Origin: Candidatus Moraniibacteriota bacterium
Lineage (GTDB): Bacteria > Patescibacteriota > Minisyncoccia > Moranbacterales > UBA1568
Length of the DNA stretch: 64,000 bases
NCBI GenBank assembly: GCA_013334575.1
Contig: JAAXXG010000001.1
Span: forward strand, 41,280-105,279
Reading direction: 5' to 3'
Of this stretch, positions 8,694 to 52,345 are shown piece by piece; positions within the stretch are counted from its first letter, which is position 1; each line of letters begins with the position of its first letter. The position numbers were made by a program, and so were the translations under genes. Below the pieces are notes generated by a model that had not been told where the DNA came from, did no database searches, and saw only the letters and a program-made list of their open reading frames with translations.

Positions 8694-9739
8694 TGCTCAC
8701 GCTTCACACTGTGCGAAATTCGAAACAGGCTCTCCGGAACGGAGCGTTCCGGGCGGCGTTCGTTTCGCTGCTTGCAGTCGCAACGGGACTGTCGGGTGGC
8801 ATGTCGGGAACGAATGCCTTCTTTTCGGATACCGAGAGCGTGACCGGAAACTCCGTAGAGGCCGGTGTCTGGATTCCGACGCTCCACGCGTCGGTGTCGC
8901 CTGCGTCGCCGAACGGGCAGTATGACGCGACTCTCTACAAGACGCGTCCGTGCGTCACGCTTTCGTATGACGGTCTCTCGTCCGGGACCGCTACCATATG
9001 GTATGAATTTTCGGACGACGGAGATCCTCGGGACGGCGGGACGGTCTACGGCGGGGCCTGTATCGAGGTTCCCGACGGGGATCCGGTTCCGTTCCAGGCT
9101 GTCGCGGTGAACGTCGCGAATCCGGACTGGAGGAGCTCGGTCTTCTCGCGGGTGTTCAGGGTGGATACGGAATGTCCGGAGATCACGCTTGAGGACCCGG
9201 ATAATGGCGATACCGTTTCGGGAACCGTGAAGCTGCGCGGCACGCTTTCCGACAAGCATCCGCATCACTACTGGCTGGTCGTCGTAAGGAAATCGAACGG
9301 GGAACAGGTGGCGGGCCCGGGTGTCGTGAACGATTCGGATAGCTTTTCGGATAAGATTCTCTATGACTGGGATACGACGAAGGTCGTCGACGGGGACTAT
9401 GTCGTCAAGTTCGAGGCGCGCGACGCGGCCGGGAACAAGTGCGAACCGGGCAAGTCGGTCGATTGGAACACCGTTACCGTTCGAAATGCCGTTCCTGTCA
9501 CGGAAGCGGGAAATATGGACGCGAATCCCGGAGACGTGACGGTTTCCACGTCCGTCTCATCTCCGTCCGCATTGACGGTCGACGGAACCGGGCTGGATGG
9601 TGTTTCTGCTACGGGTGATCCGGGAACGGCGGAGGTTGTCGTGATAGAATCGGACCAGCGGCAGGTCAGCGGCGCGGAAACGGAAGAAATACGATCCGAA
9701 GGAACGGATGTTTCCGGATCGGGTGGATCCGGAGCATGA
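8690..9739 (+). CDS. Large secreted protein with SipW-cognate signal peptide (TasA-like N-terminus plus extra beta-rich domains)
   Basis: MMLTLHTV...AVATGLSGGMSGTNAFFSDTESVTGNSVEAG carries the SipW-type motif. ATGA overlap with the sipW stop. Ser/Gly/Asp-rich C-terminus. Confidence 0.6.
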   Translation: MMLTLHTVRNSKQALRNGAFRAAFVSLLAVATGLSGGMSGTNAFFSDTESVTGNSVEAGVWIPTLHASVSPASPNGQYDATLYKTRPCVTLSYDGLSSGTATIWYEFSDDGDPRDGGTVYGGACIEVPDGDPVPFQAVAVNVANPDWRSSVFSRVFRVDTECPEITLEDPDNGDTVSGTVKLRGTLSDKHPHHYWLVVVRKSNGEQVAGPGVVNDSDSFSDKILYDWDTTKVVDGDYVVKFEARDAAGNKCEPGKSVDWNTVTVRNAVPVTEAGNMDANPGDVTVSTSVSSPSALTVDGTGLDGVSATGDPGTAEVVVIESDQRQVSGAETEEIRSEGTDVSGSGGSGA

Positions 9740-38572: not shown

Positions 38573-38687
38573 GTCTTATCGGATCTTCGGAACGACTCGG
38601 ACCCGGTTTCTCGCCCACGAGAGACGGGTCCCGTTTGTTTCAGTCTTCCGTTCATGACGGATACGGGGTATGATATATCGTACCGAT

Positions 38688-39380
38688 ATGAGTATGCGTT
38701 TCGATTTCGTCTCCATCTTTCCCGAGTGCTTCGATTCCTATCTCGGGGTATCCATGATGAACCGGGCACGCCAGGACGGGCTCGTCTCGTTCCGTTTCGC
38801 CGATCCGCGCAAGTACGCTACCGATAAACATCATACGGTCGATGATTCTCCGTACGGCGGCGGGGCGGGCATGGTAATGAAGCCGGAGCCGCTCTTCGCC
38901 TGTGTCGAGGACCTGCTCTCGGAAGGGGAGGCGTCGCGCGATCGGACCAGGATCATTCTCTTTTCGGCGAAAGGAAGACCCTTCGTACAGGACGATGCCA
39001 GACGGCTCGTAGGGTCTTACGATCGACTCATCCTTATAGCCGGACGCTACGAGGGGGTGGACGAACGCGTCCACGAACATCTTGTCGACGAGGAGCTTTC
39101 GATCGGCGAATACGTACTCACCGGCGGAGAACTTCCGGCGATGGTCGTCGCCGACGCGGTTACCCGACTCATTCCCGGCGTACTCGGCAACGCCGAGAGC
39201 GCCGAGACCGAATCGCATTCCGAAGAGGGTGTCCTCGAACATCCGCAGTATACGAAGCCGGAGGAATTCAGAGGATGGCGGGTGCCGGATGTCCTGCTCT
39301 CCGGCCATCACGAAGAGATTCGGAAATGGCGCGAGCGGATGTCGTCACGCCGTGCCGGAACCGATATCGAAACGGTATGA
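38688..39380 (+). CDS. trmD: tRNA (guanine37-N1)-methyltransferase
   Basis: [13 protein letters not shown]...[17 protein letters not shown]. Alternative starts at 38670 and 38694. Confidence 0.85.
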
Positions 39381-41683: not shown

Positions 41684-43059
41684 AGATCCATATCGTCGGA
41701 ATAGAAGGAGCCGGGACGTCCGCATTGGCAACCCTGTACGCACGACGGGGTCATGCGGTTACCGGCTCGGATGACGGGGACCGGTTTTATGCGTCCGTAC
41801 TCGAACACGAAAACATTCCCGTTTCGGTCGGATTCGACGCCCAAAACGTTCCCGAAGACGCCGAGCTGGTCGTTTATTCGACGGCGTTCGCGGAGAATCC
41901 CGAAACGGCCAGGGCACGAGACCTCGGTATACGGACCCTGTCGTACCCGGAGGCGATCGGAGAGCTTACCCGCGAATACATGAGCCTGCTCGTCTGCGGA
42001 ACACACGGAAAGACGACTACCTCGGCCATGCTCGCGGAGACATTGCGATCGGCCGGAAAGGATCCGTCCGCCGTCATCGGGAGCCGCGTTCGGGAATGGG
42101 ACGGAAACTCCCTGAGCGGATCCGGCAACCTGTTTGTCCTCGAAGCGGACGAGTATCAGGATAAACTTTCGCTCTATCATCCGTTCGCCGTCATCCTGAC
42201 CAGTGTCGACTGGGATCATCCGGATTTCTTTCCGGACGAGACGTCCTACCGGAAGACGTTTGAACGGTTCGTTTCCAGGATACCGGCACACGGAGTGTTG
42301 GTCTCGTCGTCCGATTCGGCCTCTGTCGTCGCCGTCGCCGAATCGGCGCACTGCCGCCGAATCACCTACGGATTCGACGGAAACGCGGATTACCGTATCG
42401 TTGACCGACATGCGGTCACGGCCGCGGAATCGGGTCCGGAAGGCATACGGCAGCGTTTCTCGATCGAAACCGACGCGGGACCGCTCGGAGTCTACGAGCT
42501 TCGTCTGCCCGGAAAACACAACGCCCAGAATGCCGCCGCCGTCATAGCGCTCGCATCGTATCTCGGGGTCGATCCCGAGGCCGTCCGCTCGGCGCTTGCC
42601 TCGTTCATCGGGACGGCCAGACGAAGCCAGTATGTGGGGGAGTTCAACGGCATCCCGATATACGACGACTACGCGCATCACCCCGAAGAGCTTCGCGCGA
42701 CCATTTCCGCCTTCCGCGACGCGTATCCCGAACACCGACTCGTCGCCGTATTCCACCCGCATACCTTCACCCGTACGGCCGCGCTTCTCTCCGAATTCGC
42801 GCAGGCCTTCGACAACGCCTCGCGAGTGTTGGTTCTCGACATCTACGGTTCGGCCCGCGAGAAACAGGGAGGGGTTTCCTCGGCGGATCTCGTCGCGGGC
42901 ATCAACCGCTACGCGCCAGGAAAGGCGGAGCATATCCCGACGATCCCGGAAGCCGTCTCCCGTCTTCGCGATACCCTTGAAGACGGGGATCTTCTGGTCA
43001 CCTTCGGCGCCGGAGATGTCTGGCACGTAGCCGAGGGGGTAGTCGGAGCGGAAACGTGA
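41680..43059 (+). CDS. murC: UDP-N-acetylmuramate--L-alanine ligase
   Basis: MKIHIVGIEGAGTSALA...GTHGKTTTSAML. ATGA overlap with murG. Confidence 0.85.
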   Translation: MKIHIVGIEGAGTSALATLYARRGHAVTGSDDGDRFYASVLEHENIPVSVGFDAQNVPEDAELVVYSTAFAENPETARARDLGIRTLSYPEAIGELTREYMSLLVCGTHGKTTTSAMLAETLRSAGKDPSAVIGSRVREWDGNSLSGSGNLFVLEADEYQDKLSLYHPFAVILTSVDWDHPDFFPDETSYRKTFERFVSRIPAHGVLVSSSDSASVVAVAESAHCRRITYGFDGNADYRIVDRHAVTAAESGPEGIRQRFSIETDAGPLGVYELRLPGKHNAQNAAAVIALASYLGVDPEAVRSALASFIGTARRSQYVGEFNGIPIYDDYAHHPEELRATISAFRDAYPEHRLVAVFHPHTFTRTAALLSEFAQAFDNASRVLVLDIYGSAREKQGGVSSADLVAGINRYAPGKAEHIPTIPEAVSRLRDTLEDGDLLVTFGAGDVWHVAEGVVGAET

Positions 43060-46334: not shown

Positions 46335-46832
46335 ATGAGAAACACACGCACAAGAAGGCATCCGATCATCATCGTCGGTGCAGGTGCCGATTTCGAGGAA
46401 ATCGGCCGTGATATCGCGGCACTGTCTCCCGAGCATCTCGTTCCCATATTCGCCGGCATGATCACGCGAATCAGGGAGGAGGGGGACGGAGACGCGGTGC
46501 GGGGAAGAACGCGTCTTTCCGGATTATTGGGGCGCGCGCTTGATGCCGCAGCGGGAGTGCACGCCTGTTTCGTGAGAATCGGATCGGAAGACACGTCGAA
46601 AAGCCGAAAATGGCATTACAGGACATCTCCCGAAAAACTTGGAGCCGGCATTATCGCTCTTCGTTACGATCTGACCGTTCGGGTTCTCCGGTCGATGCTT
46701 GAATCCTTCGCTCATCGGGAAGCGGGGAGGTATCGATCCGCTCTGAAACCGATGCTGATGTTCGTCGCGACGTTCGTGCGCATAGAGCGCTTGTGCACGC
46801 CGTATATCGAACAGGAAAAGAAGGGGGAATGA
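46335..46832 (+). CDS. Hypothetical protein
   Basis: AGGAGG RBS. A terminator hairpin follows at 46849-46885. Confidence 0.35.
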   Translation: MRNTRTRRHPIIIVGAGADFEEIGRDIAALSPEHLVPIFAGMITRIREEGDGDAVRGRTRLSGLLGRALDAAAGVHACFVRIGSEDTSKSRKWHYRTSPEKLGAGIIALRYDLTVRVLRSMLESFAHREAGRYRSALKPMLMFVATFVRIERLCTPYIEQEKKGE

Positions 46833-46848
46833 TGGATGATCCCCGTCG

Positions 46849-46885
46849 CGCCGCATGGCTTTGACGGGGACGTTTTTTGCCTTTA
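46849..46885 (+). terminator. Intrinsic terminator
   Basis: ccccgtcgcgccgcatggctttgacgggg followed by acgttttttgcc. Confidence 0.55.
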
Positions 46886-46970: not shown

Positions 46971-49619
46971 ATGGATTTCATGAAGAAAATGTTCGGATCG
47001 AACGAGCGAGTCATCGCGTCGTTGCGTCCGACCGTCGACGCGATCAATGCGCTCTCGAAGGCGATGGAGGATCTTTCTGACGAGGCCCTGCGCGCGAAGA
47101 CCGAGGAATTCCGCTCACGTCTCGCGAAAGGCGAGACGGAGGGCGACCTCCTGCCGGAAGCGTTCGCGGTCGTCCGCGAAGCGGCTCGACGGGTGATCGG
47201 CGAGCGACATTACGACGTGCAGCTTCTGGGCGGTATCGTACTGCATCAGGGGAAGATCGCGGAGATGCGGACCGGAGAAGGGAAGACGCTCACGTCGACC
47301 TTGCCGGTCTATCTCAACGCGGTTTCCGGAAAAGGGGTGCATGTCGTCACGGTAAACGACTACCTGGCGAAACGGGACGCGAACTGGATGGGTCGGGTAT
47401 TCCATTTCCTCGGGCTTTCCACGGCCTGCATCCTGCAGCAGGGCATCTCGTACCGGTACGAGCCGAACGTGATCGACCGCGACGAAGTGACCGTCGAGGC
47501 CGAAAATCTCGTTCCGGTGACACGTCGGGAGGCTTACGCCGCGGATATCACCTACGGGACGAACAACGAGTTCGGCTTCGACTACCTCCGGGACAACATG
47601 GTCGCAGACCTGGCGGACATGGTTCAGCGGGGACTCAACTTCGCCATCGTCGACGAAGTGGACTCCATCCTGATCGACGAGGCACGGACGCCACTTATCA
47701 TTTCCGCACCCGATTCCGAGTCGACCAAGCTGTACGAGCGGTTCGCTCGGATCGTTCCGCGGCTCCATGCCGAAGAGGACTACGTCCTGGATGAGAAGTT
47801 CCGTTCCGTCACCCTGACCGACAAGGGAATCAGCCGTGTCGAGGAGCTGCTCGGAATGCCGAACCTGTACGGGGAAGGGAATATCCAGTATGTCCACCAT
47901 CTCGAACAGTCGCTTAAGGCCCAGTTCGTCTTCCACCGCGATCGGGACTACGTCGTTCGCGACGGCGAGGTGCTTATCGTGGACGATTTCACGGGCCGGA
48001 TCATGCAGGGACGCCGGTACAGCGAAGGGCTCCATCAGGCGATCGAAGCGAAGGAGGGAGTGACGGTACAGCGCGAATCGCGGACGCTTGCGACCATCAC
48101 GTTCCAGAACTATTTCCGCCTCTACGGAAAGCTGGCCGGAATGACCGGTACCGCATCGACCTCCGCCGAAGAGTTCTCGAAGGTCTACTCGCTCGACGTC
48201 GTCGAAATACCCACGAACCGTCCCATGACGCGTACGGACCTTCCGGATATCATCTACAAGACCGAGGAGGGAAAATTCCGGAAGATCGCGGAGGAGGTGA
48301 AGCGGATACATGAAACCGGGCAACCGGTCCTGATCGGGACGATCGCCATCGAGAAATCGGAATACCTGTCGGCGCTCCTCGAACGCGAGGGTGTCCCGCA
48401 CGAGGTACTGAACGCCAAGCAGCACGAGCGCGAGGCGTCCATCGTCGCGGCCGCGGGCCGAAAGGGCGCGGTCACGATCGCCACGAACATGGCCGGTCGC
48501 GGAACCGACATCAAGCTCGGTGACGGCGTCAGGGAGCTTGGCGGGCTCGTGATCCTCGGGACCGAACGGCACGAGGCGCGTCGCATCGACAATCAGCTGC
48601 GCGGCCGTTCCGGACGCCAGGGCGATCCGGGAATGACGAGATTCTACCTTTCGCTTGAAGACGAGCTCATGCGCCGATTTGCCGGCGACCGGCTCAAGAA
48701 CATGATGAACACGATGGGGCTTCCGGATGACGAACCCATCGAAAGCAAGGCTATCTCGCACATGGTAGAGAGCGCCCAGACGAAGATCGAAGGATTCAAC
48801 TTCGACATCCGCAAGCACGTCCTCGACTACGACGATGTCATGAACCGCCAGCGCGAGGTGATCTATCGTCGTCGGCGCGAAGCCCTTTCGGCATCGGCGA
48901 TGACCGAAGTCACCGAGGACCTGCTTGCCGAGGAATTGGACCGGATCGTCGGGTTCCATTGTGCCGGGAGCGAATCGGAGTGGGCGATCGCGGAAATCGT
49001 CGCCGAAGCGAACGGTATGTATCCCTCCCTCGATGAACGCGCGACCATCGGAAACGTCGAGGCTATCCGGGACGACCGGGCGCTCGACGAGGAAGAGAAG
49101 CGGGCGCAGATCCGGGAACTGATGCTTTTGGAAGGAAAATCCGCGCTATCGAAGAAGGCGGAAGCCGTGCCGACGGAGATCTGGGATAGGATCCAGCGGG
49201 CGCTGTATGTCCAGTCGCTCGACCAGCTGTGGATGAACCACCTCGACGAGATCGAATATCTCCGTCAGGGCATCGGCCTGCGCGGCTACGGGCAGCGCGA
49301 TCCGCTCGTCGAATACAAGCGGGAAGCGTTCAATCTGTTCACGGGACTGCTCGACGCGGTCCGAAAGACCTACCTTCTGACCGTCTTCAAGATCGGCCCC
49401 ATACAGGAAGCGCCCATCGCCGTCGAGCGGAAGAACATCGTCCTCTCGGGCGCTTCGGATTCGGCGGAGCAGTTCTCCGGCTCCGGGGAAGAAGGAAACG
49501 ACCGCTCAAAGGGATCGACCGCCAAGAGCGAACCGCTCCATGCGGACAACGTCATCGGTCGCAACGATCCCTGCCCGTGCGGCTCGGGGAAGAAGTACAA
49601 GAAGTGTTGCGGGAAATAG
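46971..49619 (+). CDS. secA: Preprotein translocase ATPase SecA
   Basis: Full-length SecA with DEAD motor motifs and a C-terminal zinc-binding CPCGSGKKYKKCCG. Confidence 0.95.
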   Translation: MDFMKKMFGSNERVIASLRPTVDAINALSKAMEDLSDEALRAKTEEFRSRLAKGETEGDLLPEAFAVVREAARRVIGERHYDVQLLGGIVLHQGKIAEMRTGEGKTLTSTLPVYLNAVSGKGVHVVTVNDYLAKRDANWMGRVFHFLGLSTACILQQGISYRYEPNVIDRDEVTVEAENLVPVTRREAYAADITYGTNNEFGFDYLRDNMVADLADMVQRGLNFAIVDEVDSILIDEARTPLIISAPDSESTKLYERFARIVPRLHAEEDYVLDEKFRSVTLTDKGISRVEELLGMPNLYGEGNIQYVHHLEQSLKAQFVFHRDRDYVVRDGEVLIVDDFTGRIMQGRRYSEGLHQAIEAKEGVTVQRESRTLATITFQNYFRLYGKLAGMTGTASTSAEEFSKVYSLDVVEIPTNRPMTRTDLPDIIYKTEEGKFRKIAEEVKRIHETGQPVLIGTIAIEKSEYLSALLEREGVPHEVLNAKQHEREASIVAAAGRKGAVTIATNMAGRGTDIKLGDGVRELGGLVILGTERHEARRIDNQLRGRSGRQGDPGMTRFYLSLEDELMRRFAGDRLKNMMNTMGLPDDEPIESKAISHMVESAQTKIEGFNFDIRKHVLDYDDVMNRQREVIYRRRREALSASAMTEVTEDLLAEELDRIVGFHCAGSESEWAIAEIVAEANGMYPSLDERATIGNVEAIRDDRALDEEEKRAQIRELMLLEGKSALSKKAEAVPTEIWDRIQRALYVQSLDQLWMNHLDEIEYLRQGIGLRGYGQRDPLVEYKREAFNLFTGLLDAVRKTYLLTVFKIGPIQEAPIAVERKNIVLSGASDSAEQFSGSGEEGNDRSKGSTAKSEPLHADNVIGRNDPCPCGSGKKYKKCCGK

Positions 49620-49628
49620 CGAAAAACC

Positions 49629-50159
49629 ATGTCTGCCGAATACATCAGCCTCAAGAATGCGAAACAGGACAAGTTATTCTATTTCGTGGCGAACGTGGTC
49701 GTCTATCGCGAGGCCGACGGAAGATGCCTCATCCTGAAAAGAAGCGAGGCGGAGAAAGTCCATCCCGGCCGCTGGTGCGTTCCCGGAGGGAAGCTCGAGT
49801 GGCACCAGCTTGATCCGACACGACCGACCCGTCGAAATGGAGACGTGCTCGATTACGAGAATGCCGTCGAGGAACTTCTCAGCCGAGAAGTGGAGGAAGA
49901 GGCCGGGATTTCCATACGGAACGGACTCGAATACATCAACAGCGTCGCCTTTATCCGCCCGGATGCCGTACCGGTCATCCTCGTCAAGTTCGCGGCCATA
50001 TATGCAGCCGGAGAGGTACGGATCGAGAAGGGAGCCTTCACCGACTCCGCCTGGGTAAACGCCGAAGAAGTCGGATCGTACGAATGTATCGACGGAATCA
50101 AGGAAGAGGTCGGAAAGACGATCGATCTATTTCGAAAACGCGCTATCGATCGCGTATGA
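49629..50159 (+). CDS. NUDIX hydrolase
   Basis: Nudix box GGKLEW...REVEEEAGI. Confidence 0.7.
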   Translation: MSAEYISLKNAKQDKLFYFVANVVVYREADGRCLILKRSEAEKVHPGRWCVPGGKLEWHQLDPTRPTRRNGDVLDYENAVEELLSREVEEEAGISIRNGLEYINSVAFIRPDAVPVILVKFAAIYAAGEVRIEKGAFTDSAWVNAEEVGSYECIDGIKEEVGKTIDLFRKRAIDRV

Positions 50160-50671
50160 GCAAGATCATGACGCTCACGATGATCGTCCGGGACGGGAAG
50201 ATGCTTCTCGGCATGAAGAAGCGGGGATTCGGTGTCGGAAAATGGAACGGATTCGGAGGAAAGGTTGAGGAAGGGGAATCGATACGCGAAGCCGCCATAC
50301 GCGAAGTCTTCGAAGAATCGGGCCTGACCGTCGAAGAACTCGAGGAAGCGGGAACGGCTGAGTTTTCTTTCGAGGACGGGACCGGGTCGCGGACGGTTCA
50401 TGTGTTCCGATGCGCTTCGTACTCGGGAGACCCGGTCGAGACGGATGAGATGCGACCGGAATGGTTTGACCTGGACAGACTTCCGATTTCGGACATGTGG
50501 CCCGCCGATACGCATTGGCTGTCCGGCTACTTCCTCCATGACAAACCGTTTCGGGCGGAATTCCTGTATGATCACCCGACGGCACCGGACCGTCCCAGTA
50601 CGATCCTCCGGATGGAAATCTCGGAAATTCGGAATGATGAAAATATTTCCGGTCGAATTTCTATCCGATAA
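50156..50671 (+). CDS. NUDIX hydrolase (MutT-like)
   Basis: GGKVEEGESIREAAIREVFEESGL Nudix box. ATGA overlap with the upstream NUDIX gene. Confidence 0.7.
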   Translation: MSKIMTLTMIVRDGKMLLGMKKRGFGVGKWNGFGGKVEEGESIREAAIREVFEESGLTVEELEEAGTAEFSFEDGTGSRTVHVFRCASYSGDPVETDEMRPEWFDLDRLPISDMWPADTHWLSGYFLHDKPFRAEFLYDHPTAPDRPSTILRMEISEIRNDENISGRISIR

Positions 50672-50970
50672 CGCGTAGTGGAAAAAGTCTTCAATCGGGC
50701 TCTTTGACGACAAAAAAACCGGCATACCCGCGTTTTCAACCAAACAAAGGAGTGAATGGGTGAAGTGCCTGCTGTGCACGCGGGTTGCCGGTCCATAATC
50801 GCTGTCGGAACGAACTGAGTGGAGTATAGTCTATCGCCCGTTCCTGTCAAGAGTCGCAAAAAATGAACCCGGCCGACCCTGCCCGTTGGCATAGAATTCG
50901 ACCGGGTTACCGCGTTTGTCGCTGAACAAGCCGCGGGAAGAACTGTCACCAGTATAGTCGGGATCAAAGG

Positions 50971-51027
50971 AAAAAAACAACCCCGTCTGTGATTGTTTTC
51001 CACCGAAGCGGAATCATCAGACGGGGT
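50971..51027 (-). terminator. Minus-strand intrinsic terminator (14-bp stem with one bulge, plus U7)
   Basis: ccccgtctg-tgatt ... aatcatcagacgggg. Read on the minus strand it is followed by TTGTTTTTTT. Confidence 0.55.
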
Positions 51028-51144
51028 GCAGCGGCGTGTCCCCCAATTCACGCCGCCTATTGCCTGTATTGCGCAGACAAATCCAAATCAAGAAAGGTAC
51101 TATGCACCTACCCGGTAGCCACTTTTTGGCCACCGTTCCGTAGT
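50971..51144 (-). ncRNA. Candidate small RNA (~175 nt), unidentified family
   Basis: Minus-strand promoter TTGACG-17-TAAATT (plus coordinates 51179-51151). Two 3' hairpins and a U-tract terminator. No plausible ORF. Confidence 0.3.
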
Positions 51145-51274
51145 GATACGAATTTATCACTTGAACAGCCATGCGTCAAGAGTGGGTGAAAGTATTTCAA
51201 GTGACGGAATATCTCCGAAAGGCTTTCCTTTCTGAGCCATATCGATATACAATCCGATATAATGGCTTATCCAT

Positions 51275-52345
51275 ATGGATTTATCCGATCTCGAATCGTA
51301 CGATTACAAGCTTCCTGAAGAACTTATCCGGAAACGCGGCGTGGAACCGCGCGACTCGGCACGTCTCTTCGTTTACGACACGGCCGAGAACCTGGTCGTT
51401 CACGATACGTTCGCGAATCTTAGTGACCATCTTCCGAAAGGATCGCTGCTCGTACTCAACGAAACCCGCGTCGTCCCGGCGCGCCTCGTCCTGCGGAAAG
51501 AAACGGGCGGCAAGATCGAGGTCTTCGTACTGGCGAACGAGATACGAAACGGCGAGGACACCGTTCCGGTCCTTGTCGACCGGAAGTGCGTCCCCGGAAT
51601 GCGGCTTTCGTTTCCGGATGGGAGTTATTTCGAGGTCGTTTCGCAACGGGAGAATCGATTTTTCGTCCGGCCAGTATCCGAAATGGCGCTCGGTGAGCTG
51701 CTCGATCGGTACGGCTCGACGCCGATCCCTCATTATCTGGAAAACGGGAACGAAGCGGACGAGGAGATGGCTCTCAGGAGCCGATATCAGACCGTTTTCG
51801 CGAATGCCGGCGCATCCGTCGCCGCACCGACCGCATCGCTTCACTTCACGGAGAAGGTATTCGACCGGCTCCGGGAAAAGGGAGCAGGGGCGGTTCGGAT
51901 CGGACTCGACGTCGGTCTCGGAACCTTCTCGCCGCTCCGGCGGGAACACTTCGAGACCGGACGGCTTCATCGCGAGCATGTCACCGTATCCGCGGAAGCC
52001 GCGACCCGACTTTCGGAAGCGAAACGGAAGGGGAATGCCATCGTCGCCGTCGGTACGACCGCGCTTCGGACGCTCGAGACGGTAGTTCAGACGGATGAGT
52101 CGGGAGTAGCACGCTTCGCGGCATACGAAGGCGAGACCGACATCTTCATCAGGCCTCCGTACGTCTTCCTGTCAGCCGATATGCTGATTACCAATTTCCA
52201 TCTCCCGAAGAGCTCGCTTATGCTGCTCGTAGAAGCGTTCCTTCGGGACAAAGGAGCGGACAGGAGTCTGGTTTCGCTGTATGAAGAGGCGATCCGGGAG
52301 AGCTATTCCTTCTATTCGTTCGGCGACTCGATGCTTATCCGATGA
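51275..52345 (+). CDS. queA: S-adenosylmethionine:tRNA ribosyltransferase-isomerase
   Basis: MDLSDLESYDYKLPEELIRKRGVEPRDSARLFV, the canonical QueA N-terminus. 356 aa. Confidence 0.9.
   Translation: MDLSDLESYDYKLPEELIRKRGVEPRDSARLFVYDTAENLVVHDTFANLSDHLPKGSLLVLNETRVVPARLVLRKETGGKIEVFVLANEIRNGEDTVPVLVDRKCVPGMRLSFPDGSYFEVVSQRENRFFVRPVSEMALGELLDRYGSTPIPHYLENGNEADEEMALRSRYQTVFANAGASVAAPTASLHFTEKVFDRLREKGAGAVRIGLDVGLGTFSPLRREHFETGRLHREHVTVSAEAATRLSEAKRKGNAIVAVGTTALRTLETVVQTDESGVARFAAYEGETDIFIRPPYVFLSADMLITNFHLPKSSLMLLVEAFLRDKGADRSLVSLYEEAIRESYSFYSFGDSMLIR

Follow-up and report, generated by a model that had tools for sequence, protein, structure and literature searches.

The gap directly upstream of queA in a metagenome-assembled genome of Candidatus Moranbacteria (CPR/Patescibacteria) holds, on its minus strand, a stretch of DNA, here named unit A, that resembles the gene of a small RNA (sRNA). 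With a probability of roughly one half, we read unit A as an independent, intrinsically terminated non-coding sRNA of about 172 nt that is transcribed divergently from queA, and we consider it a credible, lineage-restricted candidate within the ordinary class of stand-alone bacterial sRNAs. An earlier note had proposed an sRNA candidate at this place. Its anatomy, minus-strand orientation and non-coding nature stand; the 6S or SRP identity put forward for testing is rejected, and the sequence aligns only to that of a 99%-identical strain.

Anatomy of unit A and its neighbours

The window, i.e. the whole stretch of 64,000 nt that was analysed, encodes a QueA that is 99% identical to the QueA of GCA_013336155.1 (contig JAAXUE010000003.1). 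The 603 nt between the second of two NUDIX genes and queA form the longest gap of the 64-kb window, in which the median gap is about 117 nt (crude ORF calling), so that the description of this intergenic region as unusually long holds. No genes were called in the gap in three independent assemblies. On its minus strand it contains three tandem promoter-terminator units in the order A, C, B, the first of which, unit A, diverges from queA. The second-longest gap of the window (38573-39081, 509 nt by crude ORF calling) has no Rfam match. The features of the locus are the following.

46971-49619, plus: secA
49629-50159, plus: NUDIX gene 1
about 50157-50671, plus: NUDIX gene 2
50712-50850, minus: unit B, with a long-range hairpin and T7 (50718-50712); from promoter scan and fold
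50858-50959, minus: unit C, with two hairpins and T6 (50863-50858); from promoter and terminator patterns
50971-51144, minus: predicted unit A transcript, about 172 nt, five hairpins; from fold and inferred start
50971-51027, minus: compound intrinsic terminator of unit A (hairpin 51027-50980, -26.5 kcal/mol, z -5.3)
51030-51057, minus: hairpin H4, 9-bp G+C stem (-15.7 kcal/mol, z -4.7)
51060-51080, minus: hairpin H3, 7 bp (MFE only)
51095-51109, minus: hairpin H2, 6 bp (fold prediction)
51113-51135, minus: hairpin H1, 9 bp, AAAAG loop (-16.0 kcal/mol, z -4.3)
51151-51159, minus: extended -10 of unit A, TGA plus TAAATT (hexamer 51156-51151); from promoter scan
51174-51179, minus: -35-like hexamer of unit A, TTGACG; from promoter scan (9/12 overall)
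51275-52345, plus: queA

The promoter-like site of unit A consists of the hexamers TTGACG and TAAATT, separated by a 17-nt spacer and with a TG ahead of the -10, and it has a sigma-70-like score of 9/12. Two promoter-like sites were observed in 1.1 kb, compared with 0.8 +/- 0.9 in shuffled sequences, which places the unit A site, taken alone, at chance level. Transcription is predicted, from promoter spacing only, to start at about position 51144; from there it is about 87 nt to the beginning of H4 and about 117 nt to that of the terminator. The earlier note had described this promoter (51179-51151), followed "~120 nt later" by two consecutive stable hairpins and a U7 tract. The promoter-like sequence is present as described, and the distance is roughly right.

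The 181-nt stretch of unit A folds on the minus strand with a minimum free energy (MFE) of -78.7 kcal/mol (z -5.77), and none of 200 shuffled sequences folded as well. Both the MFE and the centroid fold consist of five separate hairpins, whose loops are AAAAG, AUA, CGCAAUA, AAUUGGGGGA and UUCG. A U-rich linker, UUCUUGAUUUGGAUUU (51094-51081, minus), directly follows H2, and the fourth of these loops, the apical loop of H4, spans 10 nt (51048-51039, minus). The terminator has an outer stem of nine G+C-rich base pairs plus a closing A-U pair (51027-50980). This stem encloses a bulged A, four further base pairs (UGAU/AUCA) and a UUCG-capped inner hairpin, and it is followed by the tail UGUUUUUUU, which runs down to 50971 and includes the U7 tract. 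A standard terminator scan missed this terminator because it accepts only loops of 3-8 nt. A scan of both strands of the window for hairpins with an energy of -12 kcal/mol or lower and a run of at least T6 behind them gave 12 sites. The unit A terminator ranks second in strength among these, and the site that ranks third is found about 115 nt beyond it, in the same gap and also on the minus strand. Both NUDIX genes and queA are read from the plus strand and, as had been pointed out before, the unit A terminator does not stand at the end of any minus-strand protein gene; it is an orphan terminator, that is, a strong hairpin with a T-run but without a protein-coding gene to terminate, which counts in favour of a real RNA gene.

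Three observations back the assignment of unit A to the minus strand. Firstly, the plus strand of the same stretch folds less stably (-62.8 kcal/mol, z -4.42), the minus strand being better by 16 kcal/mol. Secondly, the 99%-identical strain (L082/L083) has five differences from the window in the gap. Three lie within unit A, and the only two substitutions in stems are C>U changes at 51129 (H1) and 51104 (H2), both opposite a G. Although the sample is small, both changes keep a G-U pair on the minus strand, while the plus strand would give A.C. Thirdly, the position of the U-tract agrees with this assignment.

The secA gene, by itself, differs by 4.1% between the window (46971-49619) and L082 (5697-8345), in a strain that is otherwise 99% identical; over the NUDIX genes, the gap and queA the difference is 0.2-0.8%. 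The secA divergence is probably a recombination tract.

Units C and B look like sibling sRNAs, and their sequences suggest that C is a paralogue of B. The -10 of unit C is GACTATACT (50959-50951, minus), with a start at about 50944. Unit B, which is the "first" sRNA candidate of the earlier note, has an 11/12 promoter, TTGACA-16-TATACT (50850-50823, minus), a start at about 50816 and a fold of -43.2 kcal/mol (z -4.15). The two units share the GACTATACT -10 region and a CAGTTC 5' end, and their similarity is significant (local alignment z 3.05, with 6 of 500 shuffles as good). Unit A has no sequence similarity to either of them (local alignment z about 0; 0.03 for A and C). A single-sequence covariance model built on the 3' half of unit A (R1) did match unit C with an E of 1.9e-4, a value in which the terminator-like architecture weighs heavily; set against the alignment z of 0.03, the idea that A is a tandem duplicate of C was left as weak. 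The R1 model mostly finds other terminators. Upstream of secA, a plus-strand terminator (46815-46882) with a CCCCGTC...GACGGGG stem, the same as in the unit A terminator, gave an R1 match of E 0.12 and a blastn match of 22 nt to the unit A terminator; this likeness is probably a convergence of G+C-rich terminator stems.

The main alternative to an sRNA, which we consider rather unlikely, sees in the gap an array that turns over rapidly, made up of old sRNA or terminator modules and without a function in trans. The promoter of unit A would then be a chance match, and its hairpins and terminator would be relics or, in a variant of equal standing, an insulator against stray minus-strand transcription into the convergent NUDIX genes, for example antisense transcription from the queA side. 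That promoter-like matches of the quality found here are expected by chance speaks for this alternative. So do two details of the array itself: H2 followed by UUCUUGAUUU resembles a degenerate terminator inside unit A, and the weak -35 of unit C (TTGTTT) sits within the U-tract of unit A. Against it, the unit A terminator is among the strongest of the window, and the substitutions in the 99%-identical strain preserve pairing.

Known RNA families and coding capacity

Searches with Rfam at gathering score reported only three tRNAs in the window, all outside the gap, and no match at ten related loci. A search of positions 50600-51350 (751 nt) at E<=10 with relaxed filters returned only sub-threshold snoRNA-like noise, without a match to 6S RNA, SRP RNA, RNase P RNA, tmRNA, a riboswitch or a ribozyme, and at E<=5 no 6S, SRP, RNase P or tmRNA match was found on L085, L088 and L170. 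Both 6S RNA and SRP RNA, which the earlier note had proposed for testing, are therefore negative even with permissive filters: neither the 6S models (RF00013 clan), at gathering score or E<=10, nor the bacterial SRP models (RF00169 and RF01854), at E<=10, match. Nor does the fold agree with either RNA. Unit A forms five separate hairpins, not the 6S rod with a closing stem between the 5' and 3' ends, a central bubble and a terminal stem, and a GNRA-capped helix like SRP domain IV was not seen. It could still be argued that unit A is a housekeeping RNA, such as 6S or SRP RNA, that is too divergent for the Rfam models; a length of about 172 nt with strong structure falls in the 6S range, and the seed alignments of Rfam contain few CPR sequences. 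However, between genomes with a QueA identity of 70% one would expect a housekeeping RNA to align, which unit A does not. Together with the missing matches to 6S, SRP, RNase P and tmRNA at E<=10 and with the five-hairpin fold, this largely refutes the housekeeping reading, which we now hold to be very improbable.

Several other classes were tried and rejected. ARAGORN found three tRNAs in the window, all elsewhere, neither a tRNA nor a tmRNA in the gap, and none in seven related loci. Recent work has reportedly described group I introns in tRNA genes of Patescibacteria, from which came the idea of an intron-split tRNA; a T-arm (5-bp stem, TTCRANN loop) is absent from the gap of the window, whereas the positive control was found, and the sole match in nine gaps was a marginal one in L170, with four of five pairs. 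A role as leader or riboswitch is excluded because no gene follows on the minus strand, where units C and B come next, and then the 3' end of the convergent NUDIX gene. Likewise, no known aptamer family matches, at gathering score or at E<=10, so that the Rfam assignment as a riboswitch or leader that had been named as speaking against an sRNA was not obtained. The CUGAUGA...GAAAA of the terminator recalls a hammerhead ribozyme, but the AAACA after the inner stem leaves no G12, no model matches at E<=10, and these nucleotides form ordinary Watson-Crick pairs around the bulged A; reading CUGAUGA as a K-turn was rejected by inspection and by Rfam. Unit A has four GGA in 172 nt, compared with about 2.7 expected from random sequence, which speaks against a protein sponge of the CsrB/RsmZ type. 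As to an origin from a mobile element, the H4 sequence has no exact match in viral contigs.

Unit A counts as having no coding capacity: there are no Pfam matches and no gene calls, and reading frames are unconserved in the nearest analogues. Of the overlapping ORFs, which would encode 159, 51, 66 and 49 aa, none matches Pfam at E<=1 and none is called in the three assemblies, in keeping with the earlier opinion that they are not protein-like; the 159-aa ORF crosses three terminators and enters the NUDIX gene on the opposite strand. Translation from the AUG-GGG-G of the loop motif treated in the next section was rejected too, since ORF lengths and frames are not conserved. The ORFs starting at the AUG or UUG of this motif comprise 5, 9 and up to about 49 aa by translation, one is open through the terminator, and the alignment of L089 and L170 contains 1-nt indels.

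We give very little chance to the reading that unit A is instead the mRNA of a small protein, for example a peptide like the type I toxins, whose mRNAs are highly structured. The candidate would be a 38-codon ORF with a GUG start (51133-51017, VAKKWLPGRCIVPFLIWICLRNTGNRRRELGDTPLHPV), the C-terminal part of the 51-aa ORF at 51017-51172, which lies in the transcript and has a short hydrophobic core with basic flanks. But the hydrophobic stretch, besides being short, is interrupted by P, G and R, and the GUG has no Shine-Dalgarno sequence at a usable distance. This ORF also has no Pfam match and is uncalled in three assemblies, the equivalent ORFs in L171/L177 shift frame through a 1-nt indel, and an antisense or antitoxin RNA is not evident.

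The queA-upstream gap in related Moranbacteria

Searches of the gap with blastn and nhmmer against 81 queA loci of GTDB species representatives, in which QueA is at most 60% identical and queA has no upstream gap, found nothing, and a metagenome scan yielded distant queA loci only. A search of a large protein collection gave QueA proteins with 64-72% identity, and contigs were retrieved for ten. In seven related contigs (L084, L087, L089, L170, L171/L177, L174 and L176; QueA 67-72% identical), queA is immediately preceded by a non-coding gap, 352-1484 nt long. Two loci carry little weight in either direction: in L173, queA has no such gap, and L175 is cut 185 nt upstream of queA, its stub still carrying a minus-strand promoter. 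Searching the strand opposite to queA for the pattern TTGAC-N16-19-TAnnnT revealed near-consensus promoters in six gaps (L084, L087, L089, L170, L171 and L174), and such promoters are also present in L175, L176 and L177. They lead into structured RNA that ends in a hairpin and T-run. Every relative that retains the gap has sRNA-like units at this position and in this orientation. Beyond the 99%-identical strain, unit A cannot be aligned by sequence to the gap of any relative, and none of its helices has covariation support.

Four of the relatives share a structured RNA domain, family X, on the strand opposite to queA:

L087, 7712-7834, opposite to queA: family X domain
L089, 9758-9897, opposite to queA: family X domain
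L170, 2623-2744, opposite to queA: family X domain
L176, 1483-1611, opposite to queA: family X domain

These sequences align, and 11-12 base pairs show compensatory changes. The domain measures about 125 nt and is closed by a long stem; it contains a three-way junction, one hairpin with the G-run and another of the form GGNRAC-NCCC-GUYNCC. It has no Rfam match, and family X is an undescribed structured RNA. Its covariance model (R2) scores the four members at 90-114 bits; in the window its only match is at 42049-42074 (E 0.4), with none in the NUDIX-queA gap. Unit A resembles family X in genomic position, orientation, type of promoter-like site and long terminator, and in presenting a G-run in a hairpin (AUGGGGG in family X, WUGGGGG as the wider motif). 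It differs in having neither the three-way junction nor the GGNRAC-NCCC-GUYNCC hairpin, nor the RGUUCYU 5' end. The latter directly follows the -10 in units C and B and in L087, L170, L175 and L176, and the starts in L089 and L177 are similar to it by eye. As for the terminator of unit A, that of L171/L177 has the same geometry (9 bp, bulged A, then UGAN/NUCA), its R1 match (E 0.04-0.4) being not significant.

The only element that unit A shares with the RNAs of its relatives is the WUGGGGG of the H4 loop. At the DNA level, WTGGGGG occurs eight times in 365,586 nt of flanking sequence, both strands counted. The gaps of the window, L084, L087, L089/L170 and L174 each hold a single copy on the minus strand and none on the plus strand, for a chance per gap of 0.008-0.026, the motif having been chosen after looking. 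It lies in or at an apical hairpin loop in unit A, L174, L087, L089 and L170, on a stem whose sequence differs from genome to genome. In L174, L170 and L089 this stem, too, includes G-U pairs, which would turn into A.C if the opposite strand were read. The motif is shortened to AUU(U)GGGGC, on a comparable hairpin, in L171/L177; L176 has AAGGGGGG in its place, and in L084 the G-run is base-paired in the MFE fold. As a sign of homology, the shared G-loop motif is suggestive but no proof.

Two further observations were made in these gaps. The G-loop hairpin of L177 (GCGAGCGAUUGGGGC) has its complement, GCCCCGAACGCUCGG, in a neighbouring unit (unit iii, 8743-8870, against unit ii, about 9240-9400), the duplex having -27.5 kcal/mol and a z of -2.9, with 1 of 300 shuffles as good. 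The window has no equivalent of this pairing, and the unit A G-loop does not pair with units B and C better than shuffled sequences do (z -0.6 and -0.3). Besides, a repeat of about 45 nt (TTGAGAATCTATCTCAAATCTCATGTCGAGATGAAATG...), perhaps of MITE-like nature or else a conserved motif, occurs in intergenic regions of different Moranbacteria genomes, including, as an inverted pair, the gap upstream of queA in L171:

L171, about 9400-9580: repeat site in the gap
L171, about 2887-2971: repeat site
L174, about 1629-1674: repeat site
L089, 6332-6359: repeat site

The comparison bears on the alternative of a decaying or insulating array in two ways. On the one hand, sequences turn over too fast between genomes for anything to align, and the genes between secA and the gap differ among the related genomes, as this alternative would have it. 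On the other hand, small CPR genomes seldom keep 350-1500 nt of junk, and all seven gap-keeping contigs do so at this exact spot; the promoters of the relatives are near consensus, and a strand-specific G motif has been kept across lineages.

The constant arrangement beside queA raises another explanation, namely that unit A is a cis-acting regulator of queA, in which transcription or the binding of RNA polymerase tunes queA through promoter competition or supercoiling and the RNA is a by-product. The queA mRNA is probably leaderless or nearly so, since a TATAAT lies 11 nt before its ATG (51275) and the start region has no Shine-Dalgarno sequence. The earlier note had suggested a short-leader or leaderless mRNA from a TATAAT at 51254-59, about 8 nt before the start; the hexamer is in fact at 51258-51263 (plus), and a leader of 3-5 nt is plausible. 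In L084, L171/L177 and L175, a conserved ATAGACTG(T/G)C is found instead, about 35-45 nt upstream of queA. Wherever a related contig has kept the gap, the divergent arrangement is seen as well, queA is without a Shine-Dalgarno sequence, its leader measures a few nt at most, and in L087 the -35 of the sRNA is only 13 nt from the queA ATG, so that the two promoters must overlap, all of which would suit regulation in cis. In the window, however, the unit A promoter (51179-51151) and the queA TATAAT are about 80-100 bp apart and the two promoters do not overlap, and units C and B are too distant from queA for such a mechanism. Moreover, five stable hairpins, a compound terminator and a conserved loop motif would be superfluous in an RNA that is only a by-product. 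We regard regulation in cis as improbable.

Possible mode of action and significance

Returning to the reading of unit A as an independent sRNA, we propose that it may be a regulatory RNA that acts in trans and would make contact through the exposed, G-rich apical loop of H4. This loop alone has been kept across lineages, on stems that are entirely different. The loop may pair with a C/U-rich RNA site or be read by a protein, either of which would fit the pattern of a conserved loop, and H1 to H3 and the compound terminator would mainly provide stability. In a scan of the 49 translation-start regions in the window for targets, none stood out: the best duplex energy, -52.7, was no better than the mean of -53.6 for shuffled unit A.

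Among known sRNAs, the closest parallels in design are those with C-rich loops from Firmicutes (RsaE/RoxS, LhrC and the RNAIII type). As is predicted for unit A, they are stand-alone intergenic genes with a sigma-70-type promoter, several hairpins, an intrinsic terminator and a short conserved motif in a hairpin loop, and LhrC1-5 also occur as tandem sibling copies, as unit A stands beside C and B. Their loops are C-rich, in contrast to the G-rich WUGGGGG loop of unit A, which would therefore pair with C/U-rich sites and not with Shine-Dalgarno sequences, and they have no sequence homology to unit A, none being reported by Rfam. Tandem sibling units are likewise known from OmrA/B, PrrF1/2, AbcR1/2 and Qrr; here there are three, head to tail on one strand, but unit A is unlike C and B in sequence and lacks their RGUUCYU 5' end. 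Unit A is also close to 6S RNA in length (about 170-190 nt), is highly stable like it and would likewise have a gene of its own, whereas its five independent hairpins contrast with the closed 6S rod and its central bubble, and unit A is not conserved between genomes sharing 70% QueA identity.

Tentatively, and with more doubt than attaches to unit A itself, the gap upstream of queA can be seen as a conserved Moranbacteria "sRNA nursery", in which fast-evolving sRNAs present an invariant WUGGGGG apical loop, unit A being its carrier in this genome. If the units are unexpressed relics, they would be only an example of rapid intergenic turnover. If the nursery exists, the Candidate Phyla Radiation would have, in these RNAs, its first defined riboregulators, with a G-loop that acts on a C/U-rich RNA site or a dedicated RNA-binding protein; our literature search found no study of small regulatory RNAs in CPR/Patescibacteria. 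These bacteria have genomes of roughly 1 Mb and very few known regulators, and the locus upstream of queA, with several non-coding units of strong putative promoter and terminator in every relative that has the gap and with a motif that survives an otherwise complete turnover of sequence, offers a concrete place in which to look for riboregulation.
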